Source: Bacteroidota bacterium (GTDB lineage Bacteria > Bacteroidota > Ignavibacteria > Palsa-1295). Taken from it: a DNA stretch of 64,000 bases. Shown here piece by piece: positions 24,214 to 62,887 of this stretch. A program made the translations under genes and the position numbers. The notes below the pieces were generated by a model. It saw nothing but the letters and a program-made list of their open reading frames with translations, searched no databases and was not told where the DNA came from. The stretch lies in NCBI GenBank assembly GCA_030706385.1, contig JAUZOQ010000001.1:5575-69574 (forward strand), read 5' to 3'. The stretch's first letter is position 1, and each line of letters begins with the position of its first letter.

Positions 24214-25434
24214 ATGAGGATTAATTGCAAGCTGTTCGTTATTTGTGCCGTAATAGCATTCTCTATGCCTGCTTCAGCACAAGACAAGATGCAAGATTTC
24301 CTGAATAGCTGCAATTCCACCATAAACGGAATATACAGTGGGTCCATTTCATATTCTATCACTACAAAACACTTTCTAAATAACGTATTCAGAGATTCCA
24401 AGAATCAATTGCTGTTCAGCTACCGAACAAATGTACCCGATAGCATGAGTTTTGTTTTGAAGAAAGAGAATGGCGACATAATTCTTTATGACTATAAACA
24501 CTATTCCGTTTACTTAGCAAACCAGAAGAAGATCATAGAATCTAGTCCTTCATGGCATCAGGTAAGAACGCAGGTGCGGATGGAATTATGTCCGCTTGTA
24601 ACTCGAACCGAAAACGTTTTTCGATCTATCGGAGATTCGGCCCATCTCATCTACCGGACTTTTCGCGACACATCTATTGAAGGGAAGGAGTATTATGTAG
24701 TAAACCTTATCCGCAAGGAGGAATTAATGGCCGGCGGTAGTATTGCAGATAGTTCGTCAATTAGATCCTCACGGTTTGTCTTCGACGCTCGTACCAAACT
24801 ACCCCATAGTTTTCAAGAATCAGTCAGTTGGAGAAAGGATAGCCAATACACGGTAATTCGTTTCGATTCTATTTCCTCGGTGAACTCCATTTCGTCTGAT
24901 AAGCTCTTGAGTCATATTCATTCGTTGCGCGATAGTTTAAAGTCTCTGAAGGATATTGTGATTGAAGAAAAAAGTAACAAACCTCCAAAAGCGAAAGAAC
25001 TACTAAAAAATGATACCTATGCTTATAATGTACGGTTCATTACGCCAGAAAGTGATACGATGCATTTGGCAAATGTTGACTCCAAATTGACCTTGCTAGA
25101 ATTTTGGTACATAACCTGTTTTCCTTGCCAACTTCAAATACCACTACTTAACAGAATCGATCAAAAATATAAGAATAAAGGACTGATGATAATTGCTTTG
25201 GACCCGTTCGATGACGTCCGATCTGAGAGAATGCATGAACATATTACAAAAAACCAAATAGGCTACCAAGTTGCCTCCGTGTCAAAATTAATCGCAGAAC
25301 AAAAGTTTAATGTAGATGCGTACCCGGCTTTATATCTACTAGACAAAGATAAGAAGGTAATTTTTTCCAATGTTGGGTATGGTGAAAATTTAGAACAAAC
25401 ACTCGAGGATATTATTGAACAGAATCTCCGATGA
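24214..25434 (+). CDS. secreted TlpA-like thiol:disulfide oxidoreductase with N-terminal extracytoplasmic domain
   Basis: Signal peptide (MRINCKLFVICAVIAFSMPASAQ). The C-terminal thioredoxin fold carries the CxxC-type active site FWYITCFPCQ and AhpC/TSA-TlpA-like spacing. The gene and its upstream intergenic region are markedly AT-richer than their neighbours. Confidence 0.6.
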   Translation: MRINCKLFVICAVIAFSMPASAQDKMQDFLNSCNSTINGIYSGSISYSITTKHFLNNVFRDSKNQLLFSYRTNVPDSMSFVLKKENGDIILYDYKHYSVYLANQKKIIESSPSWHQVRTQVRMELCPLVTRTENVFRSIGDSAHLIYRTFRDTSIEGKEYYVVNLIRKEELMAGGSIADSSSIRSSRFVFDARTKLPHSFQESVSWRKDSQYTVIRFDSISSVNSISSDKLLSHIHSLRDSLKSLKDIVIEEKSNKPPKAKELLKNDTYAYNVRFITPESDTMHLANVDSKLTLLEFWYITCFPCQLQIPLLNRIDQKYKNKGLMIIALDPFDDVRSERMHEHITKNQIGYQVASVSKLIAEQKFNVDAYPALYLLDKDKKVIFSNVGYGENLEQTLEDIIEQNLR

Positions 25435-51087: not shown

Positions 51088-53499
51088 GTGCGTTCGTACG
51101 AAAAAGGTTATAGCACAGCTTCCCCGCTCGAACGCCCAACAGGCGTTAGGACTCCCTCATCTTTCGCAAGAGAACGGTCATCCGAAACCGAACAGGAATA
51201 TAGGGCTCCTGGACGTAATCGAACCCAACCAGACTCCCATCCGCGATACGGACCTCAGGCAGAATCAGCTGTATCCATGCCCAAAGGCAAACAATGGCAT
51301 CAGCGCTGGATCGAAAGATTTTTTGCTTCGCCGGCTACAAAGGATCCGATGTCTTCCAATGGAAGGCTCTATATTGTTCTTGCCGTGTTTCTCATTGGAT
51401 TTTGTGCTGTTATTGGAAAATTATTTAAGGTTCAAGTCATCGAGCACGAAGCACTAAGCGAACAGGCCGCAAGCCAGTACCAAATGCAAGTTACTGTTCC
51501 GGCCAGACGCGGAGTACTACGAGATCGTAATGGTGTGATACTTGCCAGCAACGCCTTTGTTGTGAAGTTTGCATTTGATCCGGAGGAAATAAAAAATAAA
51601 ACGGCAGTCGCAGCTGCATTCAGTTCGGTTTTCGGTAAGCCAAAAGAGTACTATGAAGGCTTCTTAAAAGATACTTCCCGACATTACATCGTCGTCGAAC
51701 GTGAAGTACCGCAAGAGATCGCTGCAAAACTCGATGGGATCAAGGAGCGCGGAGTAATGCGTGAAACTGATGAGCGCAGACACTATGCGTTCGGAACAAA
51801 AGGGTCGCACATCCTGGGATTCGCTAGCAAAGATGGACGAGGCCTCGCAGGTCTCGAACTATACTACGACAAAATGCTACGTGGAACCGATGGCGTCAGC
51901 ATTATGCAACGCGACGGCAAAGGCTTCCGCAGGCCTGATGTAGACTATGATCAGGTCCCTCCGACAAACGGTGACGACCTGACACTCACGATCGACGAGG
52001 GTCTGCAGGCAGTGACGGAGAATGCCCTGAGGGCCGGAGTCGAACGGGCAAATGCTGAAGCAGGGATTGCAATCGTACTGAATCCTAGAACGGGAGAGAT
52101 TCTCTCCCTGGCAAACATGCCGGACTTTAATCCAAATGATTTTTTTTCCGCATCGAACGATATGCTTCGTAATCGAGCGATCACCGATGCCTTCGAACCG
52201 GGCTCAACGATGAAAGTTCTAACTGCAGCGATTGCATTGAACGAAGGAGCATGGAAACCGGAGGATAAGATCGATGCACAAGGCGGCACGTGGGTGATCG
52301 AGGGGGGTGCAAAAATAAAAGATACCCACGAGTACGGAGTTTTGACCTTTCGGCAGGCACTTGAGAAATCAAGCAATGTCTGTTTCGCTAAGATCTCCGA
52401 CAAACTTGAGCGCAGAAGATTCTATAAATACATGCGCGATTTTGGAATGAGCGTTCTATCGGGAATTGATCTGCCGGGAGAGATCAAAGGAAGTCTGCAT
52501 AAGCCCGACAAATGGAGTGTTAATTCCAAGCGATATGTCGCCTTCGGTTACGAAATGACGGCAACACCGATCCAATTGGCAATGGCTTATGCAACGATAG
52601 CGAATTTTGGTGTAATGATGAAACCATACATCATTTCGAAGCGCACGAATATCAAGGGCGAGGTAACAGAAATTCATCCGCAAGAGATTCGCAGAGTAGT
52701 CAGTGAAGAAAGCGCGAAGACATTGATCGACATCATGCGAGGAGTTGTCGATTCGGGCACCGGTACTTCAACAAAGATCAAGGGAATCCACATTGCCGGG
52801 AAAACAGGAACGGCGCAACAATATGTGGGCGGACATTATTCGAAGGAACATTATACTTCCAGTTTCATTGGGTTCTTTCCTGCTGAGAAGCCCGAGTATG
52901 AGATTCTCGTGATCATGCGCTCACCGAAGAACGGATACTATGGAGGCACTGTAAGCGCTCCGGTATTCAAAGAGATCGCAATGTCTATCCTGGAGCAAAG
53001 TGGAAAACTGGCACCGGATGCCAGAGCTCAGATGCCGCTGGCATCAACAACGCCTGCAATCGAGGAAGGTGGCGCGATCGAGATCGAAGGGACGATTCTG
53101 CGACCCCGGGAGCGGGACGATGATCGAGAGATGCCTGATGTGCGTGGATTAACGCAAGATGTTGCCAGATCGACATTGGCCGCACAAGGATTTATTGTAC
53201 TCAAAAGCGCTCAGAACGGAATCGTTGAGCGTGCAACAAGATTTGGTGGTGATTCTGTACGCTTCATTCTTCGTGCACCGGCACTAGATGAGGAGACCGA
53301 GAAACCAAAAGGTGAAAGCCAATTGGTCGAAGTCCCCGATTTCAGGCATATGCCGATGGCTCGAGCAATGAAATTCGGTGCAGCTAGTAATGTTCGTATC
53401 CGGCTGATCGGAGAAGGCAATGTGGAAAAACAATTGCCTGAACCGGGTGCGAAAGTAGATGCAAAGAATCCTATCGTTACGCTCTTCGGCGATGAATAG
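51088..53499 (+). CDS. ftsI: peptidoglycan D,D-transpeptidase FtsI (class B PBP) with two C-terminal PASTA domains
   Basis: TM anchor (LYIVLAVFLIGFCAVIGKLF), dimerisation domain, transpeptidase motifs STMK (FEPGSTMKVL), SSN (KSSNVCF) and KTGT (GKTGTAQ). Two C-terminal PASTA-like repeats (MPDVRGLTQDVARSTLAAQGF...; VPDFRHMPMARAMKFGAASNVRIRL...). The first ~85 aa of the track ORF (R/S/P-rich) may be upstream of the true start (alternative ATG ~51349). Confidence 0.85.
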   Translation: MRSYEKGYSTASPLERPTGVRTPSSFARERSSETEQEYRAPGRNRTQPDSHPRYGPQAESAVSMPKGKQWHQRWIERFFASPATKDPMSSNGRLYIVLAVFLIGFCAVIGKLFKVQVIEHEALSEQAASQYQMQVTVPARRGVLRDRNGVILASNAFVVKFAFDPEEIKNKTAVAAAFSSVFGKPKEYYEGFLKDTSRHYIVVEREVPQEIAAKLDGIKERGVMRETDERRHYAFGTKGSHILGFASKDGRGLAGLELYYDKMLRGTDGVSIMQRDGKGFRRPDVDYDQVPPTNGDDLTLTIDEGLQAVTENALRAGVERANAEAGIAIVLNPRTGEILSLANMPDFNPNDFFSASNDMLRNRAITDAFEPGSTMKVLTAAIALNEGAWKPEDKIDAQGGTWVIEGGAKIKDTHEYGVLTFRQALEKSSNVCFAKISDKLERRRFYKYMRDFGMSVLSGIDLPGEIKGSLHKPDKWSVNSKRYVAFGYEMTATPIQLAMAYATIANFGVMMKPYIISKRTNIKGEVTEIHPQEIRRVVSEESAKTLIDIMRGVVDSGTGTSTKIKGIHIAGKTGTAQQYVGGHYSKEHYTSSFIGFFPAEKPEYEILVIMRSPKNGYYGGTVSAPVFKEIAMSILEQSGKLAPDARAQMPLASTTPAIEEGGAIEIEGTILRPRERDDDREMPDVRGLTQDVARSTLAAQGFIVLKSAQNGIVERATRFGGDSVRFILRAPALDEETEKPKGESQLVEVPDFRHMPMARAMKFGAASNVRIRLIGEGNVEKQLPEPGAKVDAKNPIVTLFGDE

Positions 53500-56660: not shown

Positions 56661-57776
56661 ATGCTGTACTACTTATTCAACTGGATCAACCGCACATTTT
56701 CGCCTCCGGGCGGTGAGCTTATCCGGTATATTACTTTTCGCTCGGCCGTTGCTGCGCTTTCAGCATTAGCCATCAGTTTCTTTGTCGGCCCGCGGATCAT
56801 CAGGCGTTTGAAAGAACTTCAGGTAAGCGAACAGGGAAAAGTAGAAGCTCCGAAAGCCCATCTCTCGAAAGCGGGAACGCCGATGATGGGAGGACTTATC
56901 ATCCTGATCGCCTCCTTGGGACCTACGTTACTCTGGGCCGACATTGGAAATCTCTTTATCGTTCTGATCTTCCTCGCAACTTTGATTCTCGGTGGGATCG
57001 GATTCATGGATGACTATTTAAAAGTTGTTAAGAAGAAAAAAAAGGGACTGATCGCGCGCTACAAACTCGCCGGACAGGTCGCAGTTGGATTGATAGTGGG
57101 ACTATCGATCATGCTCTCTCCGCATCTGTTTCCCGATATCGCAACTGCGACGACCATGCCATTCTTTAAGAATCTTGTTTTTGACTTTGGCAAATGGCTC
57201 TATATTCCGTTTGTGATCTTTGTTATCACTGCAACGTCGAATGCTGTCAATCTAACTGATGGTCTCGATGGGCTTGCGGCGGGCACCGTCTCGATCGCCT
57301 TTATCGGAATTATGGCGATCGCCTACTTCACCGGAAACTTGCAGTTGAGTGAATACCTGAATATTCCTTATCTAAAAGGAGCGGGTGAGCTAACCGTTTT
57401 TTGCGCGGCGCTTGTGGGAGCGTCGCTCGGATTCCTGTGGTTCAATGCCTACCCGGCGCAAGTGTTCATGGGCGATACAGGTTCACTTGCGCTGGGCGGC
57501 GCCATGGGAACAATGATGGTTCTGGTAAAAAAGGAATTCGTCTTGCCGATCATCGGTGGCATCTTTTTCATCGAGTCTCTATCGGTCATCTCACAGACCC
57601 TCTTCTTCAAATTTACAAGAAAACGATTCGGCGAAGGAAGGCGCATCTTCAAAATGGCTCCGCTCCATCATCATTTTGAACTGACCGGCTGGGCTGAACC
57701 GAAGATCGTCACCCGGGCATACATCGTAGCGATATTGCTTGCCATTCTAACTCTCGCTACTTTCAAGGTGCGGTAG
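56661..57776 (+). CDS. mraY: phospho-N-acetylmuramoyl-pentapeptide transferase
   Basis: Polytopic. Conserved MraY motifs (GTPMMGG; NAVNLTDGLDGLAAG; PAQVFMGDTGSLALGG; HHHFE). Confidence 0.93.
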   Translation: MLYYLFNWINRTFSPPGGELIRYITFRSAVAALSALAISFFVGPRIIRRLKELQVSEQGKVEAPKAHLSKAGTPMMGGLIILIASLGPTLLWADIGNLFIVLIFLATLILGGIGFMDDYLKVVKKKKKGLIARYKLAGQVAVGLIVGLSIMLSPHLFPDIATATTMPFFKNLVFDFGKWLYIPFVIFVITATSNAVNLTDGLDGLAAGTVSIAFIGIMAIAYFTGNLQLSEYLNIPYLKGAGELTVFCAALVGASLGFLWFNAYPAQVFMGDTGSLALGGAMGTMMVLVKKEFVLPIIGGIFFIESLSVISQTLFFKFTRKRFGEGRRIFKMAPLHHHFELTGWAEPKIVTRAYIVAILLAILTLATFKVR

Positions 57777-57794
57777 TGTTATTAGAGAAGAGTC

Positions 57795-58748
57795 ATGAAG
57801 AACCTCTTTCTTATTCTCACTCTCGTTTGTATGCTTCCTAGTGTTGGAAGCGCACAGCGGCTAAAGCTTGATGTTGCATATATTATAGAGGGACAGTTCA
57901 CCGATTCGATTGTAGACATCGAAGCGCATATCGTAACCTTCGATCGTGGGAGGCCTGGCCCTATTAAAAGTGATTGGATCGACCATGTCAAGGCAAAAGT
58001 CATTTCGCAAAACGATGATGAAACAAGCTGCGTATCCTTTACCTTGGGCGAATATAAACCTTTACCTGATAATGGGCTGGACGTGCCATGGCTGAAGATA
58101 TACATAAATAATACTTCAGTCTATTCCGATTTGAGTGGTAAGGATTATGCATCAAGCATAGGAATAAAGTATCTTTGTCGTGAAGTGAGAGTAAATAAAG
58201 CTCTCTTTAATCACTATGACTTTTTCGATCGACCTGTGAATGCGGATACGCTTCCCGGACTAAGAATTCGCATACAAAATCTTTTGCAGCCGAAGGAAAT
58301 GCTCCTTGAGTATTTGGTAACAGGAGCATTTCAGAGTACAGATATAAATGTTGATGCAGTGATTGTTGATGCATATGGAAAGATACTTTGGAGAGAAGAT
58401 GGCATTGTTGGCAAAGTTGAATACTATCCCCAAGATATCACGCGTAAATGGGTCACGTTTCTCTTAGGTAAGAGCAAAGCACTTCCCTCTATCATTTTTG
58501 AAGAAAATAATATATTCAGCACTGATAGTTCAAATCTCTATCTACAGATATTTATCGAGAAACACATTTTGCATAGTCATTTGAAACCCCGAAACGATTA
58601 TCCTGACTCCATCATGGGTAAATATTCCCTTGAAGAACTTGGAGGCAATACTCTAAACTGGGTCGGCGTCAATGGATATTTTTCTGAGCCGCGCTCTTCA
58701 CCAAACGGAGTTTTGATATGCATCCGGAATAGATCATGGATCGAATAA
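57795..58748 (+). CDS. low-GC secreted hypothetical protein inserted between mraY and murD
   Basis: Signal peptide MKNLFLILTLVCMLPSVGSAQ, 317 aa, no recognisable motif. By eye its nucleotide composition is clearly AT-richer (~40% GC) than the flanking mraY/murD (~50%). Confidence 0.6.
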   Translation: MKNLFLILTLVCMLPSVGSAQRLKLDVAYIIEGQFTDSIVDIEAHIVTFDRGRPGPIKSDWIDHVKAKVISQNDDETSCVSFTLGEYKPLPDNGLDVPWLKIYINNTSVYSDLSGKDYASSIGIKYLCREVRVNKALFNHYDFFDRPVNADTLPGLRIRIQNLLQPKEMLLEYLVTGAFQSTDINVDAVIVDAYGKILWREDGIVGKVEYYPQDITRKWVTFLLGKSKALPSIIFEENNIFSTDSSNLYLQIFIEKHILHSHLKPRNDYPDSIMGKYSLEELGGNTLNWVGVNGYFSEPRSSPNGVLICIRNRSWIE

Positions 58749-58782
58749 CCTAATTTCATTCAAATACCAATCATAGTAATCT

Positions 58783-60132
58783 ATGCAGACACGCGGCAAA
58801 CGCTTCACCGTTCTTGGAGCGGGGAAGTCGGGTCTGGCAAGCGTGAGGCTCCTGCTGAAGCATCGCGCAAAGGTATTCGTCTCTGACTCACAAAAAGCTT
58901 CGAAGGCTGCCGATGCTAAGAAAGAGCTTGAAGAACTCGGCGTTCCTTTTGAATTTGGAGCGAACTCCCACAAAGTTCTGGAATCTGATACGATAATTAT
59001 TAGCCCGGGAGTTCCTCTTGGCATTCCCATTCTTGAACTTGCACGAACAAAACATATTCCCATCATTGGTGAGATCGAACTTGCTTCTGGATTTGCAGAA
59101 GCGCCTATCGTGGCCATCACAGGCACGAACGGCAAAACCACTACGACAACACTTACCGGCGAGATATTCAAAGATGCTGGGTGGGGCGTAGTCGTTGCCG
59201 GCAATATCGGAACAGCATTTGCCGACGTAGTCGAACAAACCGTCGGAGAGAAAGCAGTGAATGTTCTTGAAGTCTCGAGCTTCCAGCTTGATGCCATAAA
59301 AGAATTTCGACCAAAAGTAGCTGCATTGCTTAATATCACGCCAGATCATCTCGATAGATATAAGAATTACGAAGCCTACATTCAATCGAAGTTTCGGATT
59401 GCGGAAAATCAGAAGGGGCATGATATTTTCATCTATAATCATGATGATGAAGTTGTTCGCAATTTTGCCGAGACGGTAAATGTCAGAACGCTGGGGTTTT
59501 CAATCACGGACACTCTGAAGCAAGGGGCATTCCTCAACGATGGAATGCTCGTCATTCGGTTCGGCAGAGAACGCGAAGAAGTGATCGACCCTCAGAAGAT
59601 CGGCATCCCTGGTCCGCATAACCTCATGAATGCGATGGCGGCTGTCCTGATCGCCAAATCACTTGGAGTAGAATACGAAAGCATCCGAAAAACGCTTGTG
59701 AACTTCAAAGGCGTCGAACATCGCATCGAATTTGTCCGCGAATTCAAAGGCGTGAAGTATTACAATGACTCGAAAGCGACGAATGTCGATTCAGTCAAAT
59801 ATGCGCTGCAAAGTTTCAAAGAACCTATCGTTCTGATTGCCGGCGGAAAGGATAAGGGAAATGATTACTCTGCGATCAAAGAACTTATACAAAAGCATGT
59901 GAAAGCAATTATTACAGTCGGCGATGGAGCAAAGAATATTGAAAAAGCCTTCAAAGGCATTGTTCCGATCCATCCTGCCGACTACTCAATGGAAAAAGCT
60001 GTTGAGATTGCAGCTTCATCAGCCGATAGAGGTGATGTTGTTCTTCTCTCCCCTGCTTGTGCAAGCTTCGATATGTTCGATAACTACGAGCATCGGGGCA
60101 AAGTATTCAAAGATATTGTTAACTCGTTATAA
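58783..60132 (+). CDS. murD: UDP-N-acetylmuramoylalanine--D-glutamate ligase
   Basis: N-terminal Rossmann (FTVLGAGKSGLASVRLL) and Mur ligase P-loop ITGTNGKTTTTTL, 449 aa. Confidence 0.92.
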   Translation: MQTRGKRFTVLGAGKSGLASVRLLLKHRAKVFVSDSQKASKAADAKKELEELGVPFEFGANSHKVLESDTIIISPGVPLGIPILELARTKHIPIIGEIELASGFAEAPIVAITGTNGKTTTTTLTGEIFKDAGWGVVVAGNIGTAFADVVEQTVGEKAVNVLEVSSFQLDAIKEFRPKVAALLNITPDHLDRYKNYEAYIQSKFRIAENQKGHDIFIYNHDDEVVRNFAETVNVRTLGFSITDTLKQGAFLNDGMLVIRFGREREEVIDPQKIGIPGPHNLMNAMAAVLIAKSLGVEYESIRKTLVNFKGVEHRIEFVREFKGVKYYNDSKATNVDSVKYALQSFKEPIVLIAGGKDKGNDYSAIKELIQKHVKAIITVGDGAKNIEKAFKGIVPIHPADYSMEKAVEIAASSADRGDVVLLSPACASFDMFDNYEHRGKVFKDIVNSL

Positions 60133-61272: not shown

Positions 61273-62375
61273 TGATACAGAAGACCATCGTAATAGCTTC
61301 AGGCGGAACAGGGGGGCATTTGTACCCGACAATAGCTGTCGCTGAAGAGCTCAGAGATTCTCACCCCGAGATCAGAGTCGTCTTCGTTGGCACTTCAAAT
61401 CGTATTGAAGCTCGCGAAGTACCGAAAGCAGGATTTGAATTTCGACCGATTGAGATCAATGCTCCCGGGAAATCGCTCGTACATCTGCTAAAATTTCCAG
61501 TCCAGTATCAACGGGCCTATCGCCGATCACAAAAGATTCTACGCGAACTCAATGCAGGGGCTTTTTTGGGAGGTGGTGCATACCTGAGTGTTCCAGTTGC
61601 TTTTGCGGCGAAACGACAACGGATTCCGATCGCCATTTTGGAGATCAATGCAATTGCAGGAAGAGCGAATAAAGTAATCGCCGGAAGTGCAGACAAAATT
61701 TTCCTAAGTTATCCGGAAGCCTCGGTCGAATTTGCGAAGGTGCCGAGTACTAGGATTCAAATTATAGGTACTCCTGTACGTAAATTGCTAGAGAGGGGAT
61801 CTGTCGATCAAACTTCTGCAAGAATTCATTTCGGTCTCGATCCCGCAAAAAAGACCTTACTCGTATTTGGAGGTTCACTTGGAGCTCGTTCGCTTAACGA
61901 AGCAATGAGACGATCCATTAACCTCTTCTTGGACAGCAAGATGAATGTCATTTGGCAGACCGGGTCATCGGAAAGAATTTCCGAGATCGAAAGCAGTTAT
62001 TCGAATGCGGCCAATCTGGTAGTCAAAGAATTTATTTCTGAGATGCCAAGTGCCTATGCTGCCGCCGATCTGGTCGTAGCACGCGCAGGTGCATCAACCC
62101 TTGCCGAACTTGCTACTCTCGGTAAGCCTGCTATCCTGGTGCCCTACCCGCTCGCAGTCAAGAATCATCAGGAGATTAACGCCAGAGCCTACGAATCTAG
62201 CGGTGCTGCGATGATCATTCGAGATTCTGAACTTCCATCGAGGCTTGAGGCATCGGTACTTGAACTCATGCACAATGATGCCCGAAGAGCGGCCATGTCC
62301 GAAAAAATGCGGTCTCGGGAGAACATTACTGCCAGAAATGTTGTAGCAGAGTGGTTAGTACATCATTGTATTTAA
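61272..62375 (+). CDS. murG: UDP-N-acetylglucosamine--N-acetylmuramyl-(pentapeptide) pyrophosphoryl-undecaprenol N-acetylglucosamine transferase
   Basis: GT28 motifs (SGGTGGHLYPTIAVAEEL; GGSLGARSLN; AELATLGKPAILVPYP), 367 aa. Confidence 0.9.
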   Translation: MIQKTIVIASGGTGGHLYPTIAVAEELRDSHPEIRVVFVGTSNRIEAREVPKAGFEFRPIEINAPGKSLVHLLKFPVQYQRAYRRSQKILRELNAGAFLGGGAYLSVPVAFAAKRQRIPIAILEINAIAGRANKVIAGSADKIFLSYPEASVEFAKVPSTRIQIIGTPVRKLLERGSVDQTSARIHFGLDPAKKTLLVFGGSLGARSLNEAMRRSINLFLDSKMNVIWQTGSSERISEIESSYSNAANLVVKEFISEMPSAYAAADLVVARAGASTLAELATLGKPAILVPYPLAVKNHQEINARAYESSGAAMIIRDSELPSRLEASVLELMHNDARRAAMSEKMRSRENITARNVVAEWLVHHCI

Positions 62376-62389
62376 CGATCCGATGGCAA

Positions 62390-62887
62390 ATGGACGAAGC
62401 GCACAATACTTTTAAGTATAACTACAGATTTCTCTATCAATCGATAGCGGTTTATGCGACGACTTTGGCATCGTATATTCTGGTGCGAGGATTGCTCATC
62501 GAAAAAGAATTTGCACAAATCTTTCGTGATCCCGTCGTCTACCTTCTCTGCGCCATAATTATTTTCTCTTCAATGGCTGTCATCTATAATGCTGCAATGA
62601 GGCGTCGGATCGAGATTGCCAAAGATAAGATCTATTTGCGAGGTGCGCTTAGGGAAGTTACTATCGATATTGCAAGCGTGCGAAATATCCGCATAGGGAT
62701 CGAGCATCAGAGAGGTTTCATACCGAATACTCGAATTATCAAGATCCATCTAAAGGATCGACGCAGACCTGCATGGATCCGCACCTACAATTTTGAGCGC
62801 AGTGAAGAATTGTATCAAGCCATAAAGAAATGGGGTGGTGACCTTCTTTTAGTCCGGCCGCATCGCAAAAGGAGACGAAGTGCCTAA
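62390..62887 (+). CDS. small membrane protein with bacterial PH-like (DUF304/YdbS-like) C-terminal domain, inserted between murG and murC
   Basis: Two TM helices (SIAVYATTLASYILVRGLL; VVYLLCAIIIFSSMAVIYNAAM) followed by a basic beta-rich ~90-aa domain resembling bPH_2/DUF304. The nucleotide stretch looks AT-richer than its neighbours. ATG 62390 chosen; the track ORF starts at GTG 62351 overlapping murG. Its stop overlaps the murC GTG start. Confidence 0.45.
   Translation: MDEAHNTFKYNYRFLYQSIAVYATTLASYILVRGLLIEKEFAQIFRDPVVYLLCAIIIFSSMAVIYNAAMRRRIEIAKDKIYLRGALREVTIDIASVRNIRIGIEHQRGFIPNTRIIKIHLKDRRRPAWIRTYNFERSEELYQAIKKWGGDLLLVRPHRKRRRSA

Follow-up and report, generated by a model that had tools for sequence, protein, structure and literature searches.

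A lineage-restricted gene at the variable mraY-murD junction of a Kapabacteria division and cell-wall cluster

Gene X within the division and cell-wall cluster

The gene order of the dcw cluster, which comprises genes for division and cell-wall synthesis, is regarded as among the most rigid in bacteria. The stretch of DNA analyzed here (the window, 64,000 nt) stems from a Kapabacteria MAG and harbors a complete cluster on the plus strand in the order mraZ, rsmH, ftsL, ftsI, murE, murF, mraY, X, murD, ftsW, murG, a small uncharacterized ORF, and murC. The gene designated X (57795–58748, plus strand) starts with ATG, encodes 317 aa, and is the sole ORF of an insert of about 1 kb that separates the two core genes mraY and murD. 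Its left conserved flank, mraY (56661–57776, plus strand, 371 aa), was assigned by a Pfam match to Glycos_transf_4 at 3.8e-37, and its right conserved flank, murD (58783–60132, plus strand, 449 aa), by the Pfam families MurD_N, Mur_ligase_M, and Mur_ligase_C. The spacer between mraY and X (57777–57794) has a length of 18 nt and the sequence TGTTATTAGAGAAGAGTC; the spacer between X and murD (58749–58782) is AT-rich and has a length of 34 nt. The arrangement given in a preliminary description of this DNA, a 317-aa ORF between mraY and murD in the same orientation and with short gaps, was thus confirmed.

Identical mraY-X-murD junctions were present in two further independent assemblies of the same population, L001 (GCA_030706185.1) and L002 (GCA_030706725.1), which matched the window with 99.94% identity over 7.5 and 13.3 kb. 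All three assemblies of this population therefore carry X, and because the same junction recurs in L001 and L002 we concluded that X is not an assembly artefact. Sites resembling promoters or terminators did not occur above chance around X, including both spacers. No att-like direct or inverted repeats flanked X, no duplicated fragments of mraY or murD were found in the mraY-murD gap of the window, and no Rfam family matched between 56000 and 60500. Neither a mobility gene (integrase, transposase) nor a recombination scar was detected beside X in the window.

Three other ORFs of the cluster deserve mention. The ftsI ORF of the window (51088–53499, plus strand) reads as 803 aa from an upstream GTG, while the deposited annotation gives 740 aa; the extra N-terminal stretch of about 60 residues is polar and probably untranslated. 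The ORF between murG and murC (62351–62887, plus strand) encodes a protein of about 165–178 aa with predicted membrane segments that belongs to no Pfam or NCBIfam family. It was kept in place in all fetched Kapabacteria loci (163–176 aa) and, unlike X, looks like a lineage-wide extra component of the dcw cluster. An ORF of about 370 aa without a Pfam match lies between murC and murB, just past the right end of the window (L001:13652–14773). It is also present in L083–L086 and represents a second conserved uncharacterized gene of the Kapabacteria dcw cluster.

The base composition of X differed from that of its neighbors. The GC content was 0.403 for X, 0.492 for mraY, and 0.461 for murD, and the GC content at third codon positions (GC3) was 0.381, 0.570, and 0.458, respectively. 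For the 48 ORFs of the window the mean GC was 0.475 (sd 0.025) and the mean GC3 was 0.496 (sd 0.054); X ranked last of this set in GC3 and second to last in GC. A sliding GC profile showed a dip to 0.38–0.415 that was confined to positions 57800–58800 and matched the ORF. When codons were resampled from the usage of the window at the amino-acid composition of X, a GC3 of 0.492 ± 0.027 was expected, so that the observed value had a z of -4.2. These values confirmed that X has a higher AT content than its neighbors, which had first been judged by eye. The deviation from the flanks in GC and GC3 was not accompanied by an unusual codon usage as a whole, since the codon-usage distance of X (Karlin B) was unexceptional (rank 20 of 48, p = 0.13). 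The non-ORF DNA of the window had a GC content of 0.446, above that of X. Another low-GC ORF of the window (24214–25434, plus strand, 406 aa, GC 0.386, GC3 0.398) encodes a protein with a C-terminal TlpA/ResA-like thioredoxin domain. Low GC is also common in native genes that evolve fast or are weakly expressed. Because of this, and because the overall codon usage of X is ordinary, a foreign origin of X is unproven.

Export signal, domains and relatives of protein X

The N-terminus of X (residues 1–20, 57795–57854, MKNLFLILTLVCMLPSVGSA) was predicted to be a Sec signal peptide. Lysine K2 precedes the only strongly hydrophobic segment of the protein, residues 4–14 (LFLILTLVCML, Kyte-Doolittle 3.11 in an 11-residue window), and the core is followed by PSVGSA|Q. 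By inspection this resembles a substrate of signal peptidase I, in which a positive residue near the N-terminus, a hydrophobic core of 10–15 aa, and small residues before the cleavage site are expected. Judged from these residues, X is probably exported by the Sec system and cleaved near A20/Q21, in agreement with the earlier designation as a signal-peptide protein. We also considered X as a bacterial lipoprotein. This was rejected by comparison with the lipobox pattern, [LVI][ASTVI][GAS]C, with which the signal peptide of a lipoprotein ends: the sole N-terminal cysteine (C12) follows T-L-V, the valine at -1 does not fit a lipobox, and the hydrophobic core runs past C12. The protein was likewise rejected as cargo of a type IX secretion system (T9SS), as it has no match to PF18962 (Por_Secre_tail).

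The remainder of X is an internal tandem duplication of two copies of about 145 aa, which share 28–29% identity over 127 aa (BLASTP, E = 9e-4). Copy 1 (residues 21–165, 57855–58289) is beta-rich, and copy 2 comprises residues 166–317 and, with the stop codon, positions 58290–58748. Both were delimited by BLASTP of one copy against the other and by an alignment of four copies, two from X and two from its only relative described below; this alignment contained 32 invariant columns. An AlphaFold2 model of the X domain was all-beta at low confidence (pLDDT 55.8, pTM 0.57), and a Foldseek search with this low-confidence model returned nothing significant (E 0.11 or weaker, TM up to 0.38). Surface proteins with tandem Ig-like beta-sandwiches, such as those with ester-bond adhesin repeats, macroglobulin-like or CBM21-like domains, provide a general comparison, but X has neither sequence similarity nor a significant structural match to them. 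We infer that X is a non-enzymatic, Ig-like beta-sandwich protein of the envelope, located in the periplasm or outer membrane and acting in binding, adhesion or shielding.

No family was assigned to X by searches in Pfam (at E up to 1), NCBIfam, PHROGs, PADLOC, and PDB sequences, in line with the earlier statement that the protein has no recognizable domain. A phmmer search against 1.84 billion cluster representatives identified a single relative, the metagenomic protein P0002, and a word-indexed search of 5.8 billion proteins returned X itself and P0002 alone. P0002, which is encoded on a 1,167-nt JGI contig from sample 3300050046, is 76% identical to X over 305 aa without any gap. Nothing was found with X by tblastn against phages and plasmids or by scans of viral and metagenome contigs. 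A profile search with the four-domain alignment also returned nothing, but missed X itself as well, so this negative result is unreliable. An anti-phage defense function or a phage origin of X was dismissed, as there was no PADLOC, PHROG, phage or viral match. X was also compared with the OMP_b-brl family (PF13505) and rejected as such a barrel (no Pfam match at E up to 1, hhalign probability 0.3%). The Pfam, NCBIfam, and PDB comparisons thus revealed no homology of X to a known dcw protein.

When the X DNA was allowed to diverge neutrally in simulations to the amino-acid divergence seen in P0002, only 1.6% of the runs remained free of stop codons. The 72 replacements that distinguish X from P0002 were more conservative than random single-base changes (p = 0.017). 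The rarity of a stop-free frame under neutrality, the conservative replacements and the conserved duplication argue for X being a real gene under purifying selection. Since the internal duplication has diverged so far, a recent de novo origin of X is disfavored.

The mraY-murD junction in Kapabacteria and other bacteria

The MurD sequences nearest to that of the window were annotated as Kapabacteria (Candidatus Kapaibacterium), with identities graded from 86% down to 67%. We compared the cluster in nine related Kapabacteria lineages; the MurD identities given in the following refer to the window. The order murE-murF-mraY...murD-ftsW-murG-ORF-murC and the short spacers were kept in all related loci, and the mraY-murD junction alone differed. 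The MraY proteins of these loci were 84–93% identical to that of the window, and the first 29 nt of murD were near-identical throughout the clade. MurF was 60–74% identical among the compared genomes, which thus represent different species, so that the differences at the junction reflect repeated gain, loss or replacement over long times and not rapid turnover among strains.

A 265-aa lipoprotein was encoded at the junction of L083 (MurD 86%), and a 264-aa lipoprotein with 67% identity to it at that of L093. In L087 (MurD 86%) a palindromic element of 240 nt came first, then 79 nt duplicated from the 3' end of mraY, and finally a gene for a 250-aa lipoprotein that was 27% identical to the L083 type. 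L096 (MurD 83%) carried both lipoprotein types and, between them, a 44-nt duplicate of the murD 5' end followed by the same palindromic element. The junction of L084 (MurD 85%) contained genes for a 142-aa membrane protein and a 174-aa ORF product, and that of L085 (MurD 84%) an antisense gene for a PSII_BNR (BNR/Ycf48-like) protein with a C-terminal T9SS sorting domain (Por_Secre_tail). The junction was empty in the P0015 contig (MurD 83%), L086 (81%), L092, L089 (77%), L090 (70%), and L091 (67%), where the spacers had lengths of 21–85 nt. The empty P0015 site is nested among filled ones, its MurD being 89% identical to that of L087. Altogether, the mraY-murD junction showed at least five distinct cargo states in addition to empty sites. 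Every insert was AT-rich, with a GC content of 0.33–0.42 versus 0.44–0.49 in the flanks. Identity rankings by MraY and by MurD disagreed for L087.

X was absent from the mraY-murD junction in all nine related lineages and in 75 more distant genomes. BLASTP and hhalign showed X to be unrelated to the other cargos, and no DNA similarity was found among the inserts of the relatives. Paralogs of X or of the lipoproteins did not occur elsewhere in the fetched DNA of the related loci, and a conserved insertion point could not be read from the short, diverged spacers. The comparison of synteny thus showed X to be lineage-specific at this junction. Our literature search turned up neither an account of a variable mraY-murD slot nor one of how the dcw cluster is organized in Kapabacteria.

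The commonest occupant of the slot was the lipoprotein, found in four of the nine related lineages (L083, L087, L093, L096). Its genes lie at L083:4191–4988, L093:1677–2471, L096:3173–3988, L087:1389–2141, and L096:2090–2851. The proteins have 250–271 aa, a lipobox cysteine, a conserved P-x-Y-x-PNK motif, and a C-terminal VSRF or YRR/YRN. This family was previously unnamed and has no Pfam match. Its members are only 27–67% identical where MraY is 86–92% identical, and thus outpace their flanks.

The palindromic element of about 240 nt in the mraY-murD slot is near-perfect. It is located at L087:1058–1300 (the same in L088 and L094) and at L096:2904–3145 (the same in L095). The L087 and L096 copies are 73% identical and have the terminal inverted repeats CGCCCTTTCAGGGC / GCCCTGAAAGGGCG. 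The RNA was predicted to fold with -126 kcal/mol (z = -12.5), and the element gave a sub-threshold Rfam match to Acido-Lenti-1 (30.1 bits versus a gathering score of 37). The element is absent from the window, and the relatives that carry it showed no mobility gene. Two of the empty spacers, L090:3916–4000 and L091:3937–4000, are GC-rich, REP-like palindromes, e.g., GGGCGCATGGTAATGCGCCC ... GGGCGCATTGCCATGCGCCCC.

In 75 other genomes in which both genes were found, the mraY-murD gap was shorter than 250 nt in 69 and had at least 500 nt in six. The high conservation of the mraY-murD adjacency, from which the preliminary description had started, therefore holds broadly but not absolutely. Ignavibacteriales carried a gene for an OMP_b-brl outer-membrane protein of about 215 aa at the junction (L003:7134–7799, L005:7134–7772, L006:7137–7790). 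The three proteins were 64–74% identical to one another, and the gene was missing from the junction in the Ignavibacteriaceae genome L004 and the Kryptoniota genome L010. A homology of the Kapabacteria slot lipoprotein to this outer-membrane protein was rejected on comparison. In Nitrospirota, including a Thermodesulfovibrio MAG, the junction contained a gene for a Peptidase_S11 D,D-carboxypeptidase with a lysine-rich C-terminal tail (L046:7080–8198, L067:7087–8229). In the Melioribacter-like L008 and L009 the dcw cluster seems to be broken after mraY; a gene resembling those for TonB-dependent receptors follows on the opposite strand, and there is no murD within 6 kb. The Ignavibacteriales and Nitrospirota cases demonstrate that the junction can host genes, even one for a genuine peptidoglycan enzyme. 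Like X, these occupants encode exported envelope proteins and are co-oriented between mraY and murD. They are conserved in their clades and belong to known families, whereas X is represented by two known sequences without a detectable relationship to them.

Origin and possible role of X

The unusual feature of this locus, which the preliminary description had not recognized, is the mraY-murD site rather than X alone. X is not an ancestral component of the dcw cluster. In our view, mraY and murD probably bracket a hotspot of insertion and replacement in a genus- or family-level clade of Kapabacteria, and X is likely a lineage-restricted accessory cassette that occupies it. The proposal of an insertion could have failed on composition, on the presence of X in a broad clade, or on homology to a known dcw protein; the composition differed from the flanks, and neither of the other two was found. 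The suggested horizontal acquisition of X was supported in so far as X is a lineage-specific, compositionally deviant insertion, but its foreign origin was not proven and no donor was found.

The cassette would have arrived by recombination, most likely by double homologous recombination anchored in the conserved 3' end of mraY and 5' end of murD, and palindromic elements like those seen in the relatives may have helped an insertion of this type. This mechanism is deduced from the relatives, since X itself is bordered by neither a scar nor an att site nor a mobility gene. There is precedent for such a site: many hotspots of horizontal gene transfer located between core genes are free of mobile elements, and their content diversifies through recombination in the core genes on either side (Oliveira et al. 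2017, PMC5635113). The minimal mobile elements of Neisseria (Saunders & Snyder 2002, described in PMC3787668) are a further example. The Kapabacteria slot shares with these systems the variable content between the same two conserved genes, the deviant composition of the cargo, and the lack of an integrase or transposase. An exchange by way of the flanks, as in such hotspots, is plausible in view of the mraY 3' and murD 5' duplicates in L087 and L096 and of the partly incongruent MraY and MurD identities. Unlike these systems, the slot interrupts a division/cell-wall operon at a pair of essential genes that most bacteria keep side by side. The cargo genes mostly run in the same direction as the operon, set off by spacers of some tens of bases, and our comparison was made between species and not between strains.

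The co-orientation, the short spacers, and the lack of promoter or terminator sites above chance are compatible with co-transcription of X in the dcw operon. Transcription of X would start at the dcw promoter(s) and read through into the gene, as spacers of 18 and 34 nt leave no room for signals of its own. The antisense cargo of L085 and the strong spacer hairpins of L087, L090, and L091 hint at a separate promoter for murD in this clade, which is speculation. Such a promoter would explain the tolerance of the junction to insertions.

Because sister lineages carry unrelated cargo or nothing at all, the occupant of the junction is dispensable and interchangeable among them, and X is most probably dispensable for peptidoglycan synthesis. 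The alternative offered in the preliminary description, that X is a passenger gene, fits such an occupant, while its other suggestion, a new modulator that influences peptidoglycan synthesis from the periplasm, is not supported. Such a modulator would be specific to the species, act on peptidoglycan synthesis or division in the periplasm, and have been recruited into the dcw operon to be produced in step with MraY and MurD. The co-oriented position with very short spacers, the apparent export of X, and the presence of a true peptidoglycan enzyme at the same junction in another phylum (the D,D-carboxypeptidase of Nitrospirota) would suit this role. However, X has no similarity to peptidoglycan-related families, its family has two known members, and the relatives function with unrelated cargo or with an empty junction, so that we regard a modulator as unlikely. 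A gene inside an essential operon could still gain a division-linked role in the species of the window. Somewhat harder to accept is that X is not a replacement but an old, fast-evolving resident of the slot, an extremely diverged ortholog of the lipoprotein in L083, L087, L093, and L096. The lipoprotein is the most frequent occupant and evolves far faster than its flanks, and both proteins are exported and beta-rich. Against common descent, an hhalign comparison of X/P0002 with the lipoprotein alignment gave a probability of 0.3% and BLASTP gave nothing; moreover, X combines a Sec-type signal with two tandem domains, while the lipoprotein has a lipobox cysteine, a single domain, and a C-terminal aromatic residue. 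We therefore consider this relationship quite improbable.

Birth of X de novo or by local expansion of the mraY-murD spacer, without any transfer, would account for the failure to find a donor or a homolog outside the lineage and for the AT-rich composition, which is typical of non-coding DNA. Yet the two copies are about 29% identical and still share 32 invariant positions with those of P0002, indicating a long history as a folded protein; the empty spacers of the relatives have only 21–85 nt; and the non-ORF DNA of the window is richer in GC than X. Such a birth is very improbable. The view that X is non-functional, being an ORF that arose by chance or what is left of a decaying inserted element, draws on its orphan status, its low GC, and the poor structure prediction, but is scarcely credible. 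An open frame of 317 codons at about 40% GC is very improbable by chance, the frame is kept without gaps in the 76%-identical P0002 although neutral simulations rarely stayed open, and both the conservative substitutions and the conserved internal duplication argue for function.

A bolder extension of the cassette explanation is that the junction serves as an expression slot. Interchangeable cassettes for envelope proteins, such as X, the fast-evolving lipoproteins, and the T9SS protein, would be recombined in at the ultra-conserved flanks and ride on dcw transcription, which would couple a variable surface or periplasmic repertoire to wall growth, and X would found a new fold family that interacts with the growing envelope. 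At present we regard this as unlikely.

The mraY-murD slot of Kapabacteria is mostly loaded with fast-evolving envelope proteins, and X is one orphan of this cargo pool. As an orphan two-domain family of an uncultured organism, X itself has limited practical importance for now. The wider meaning lies in the junction: one dcw junction of one lineage has tolerated that unrelated genes, most of them encoding envelope proteins, were repeatedly inserted, replaced, and lost. The slot therefore cautions against assigning function through guilt by association when a gene lies within a conserved operon. As a natural system, it also allows one to ask how essential operons bear foreign cargo, with regard to read-through, internal promoters, and palindromic elements.
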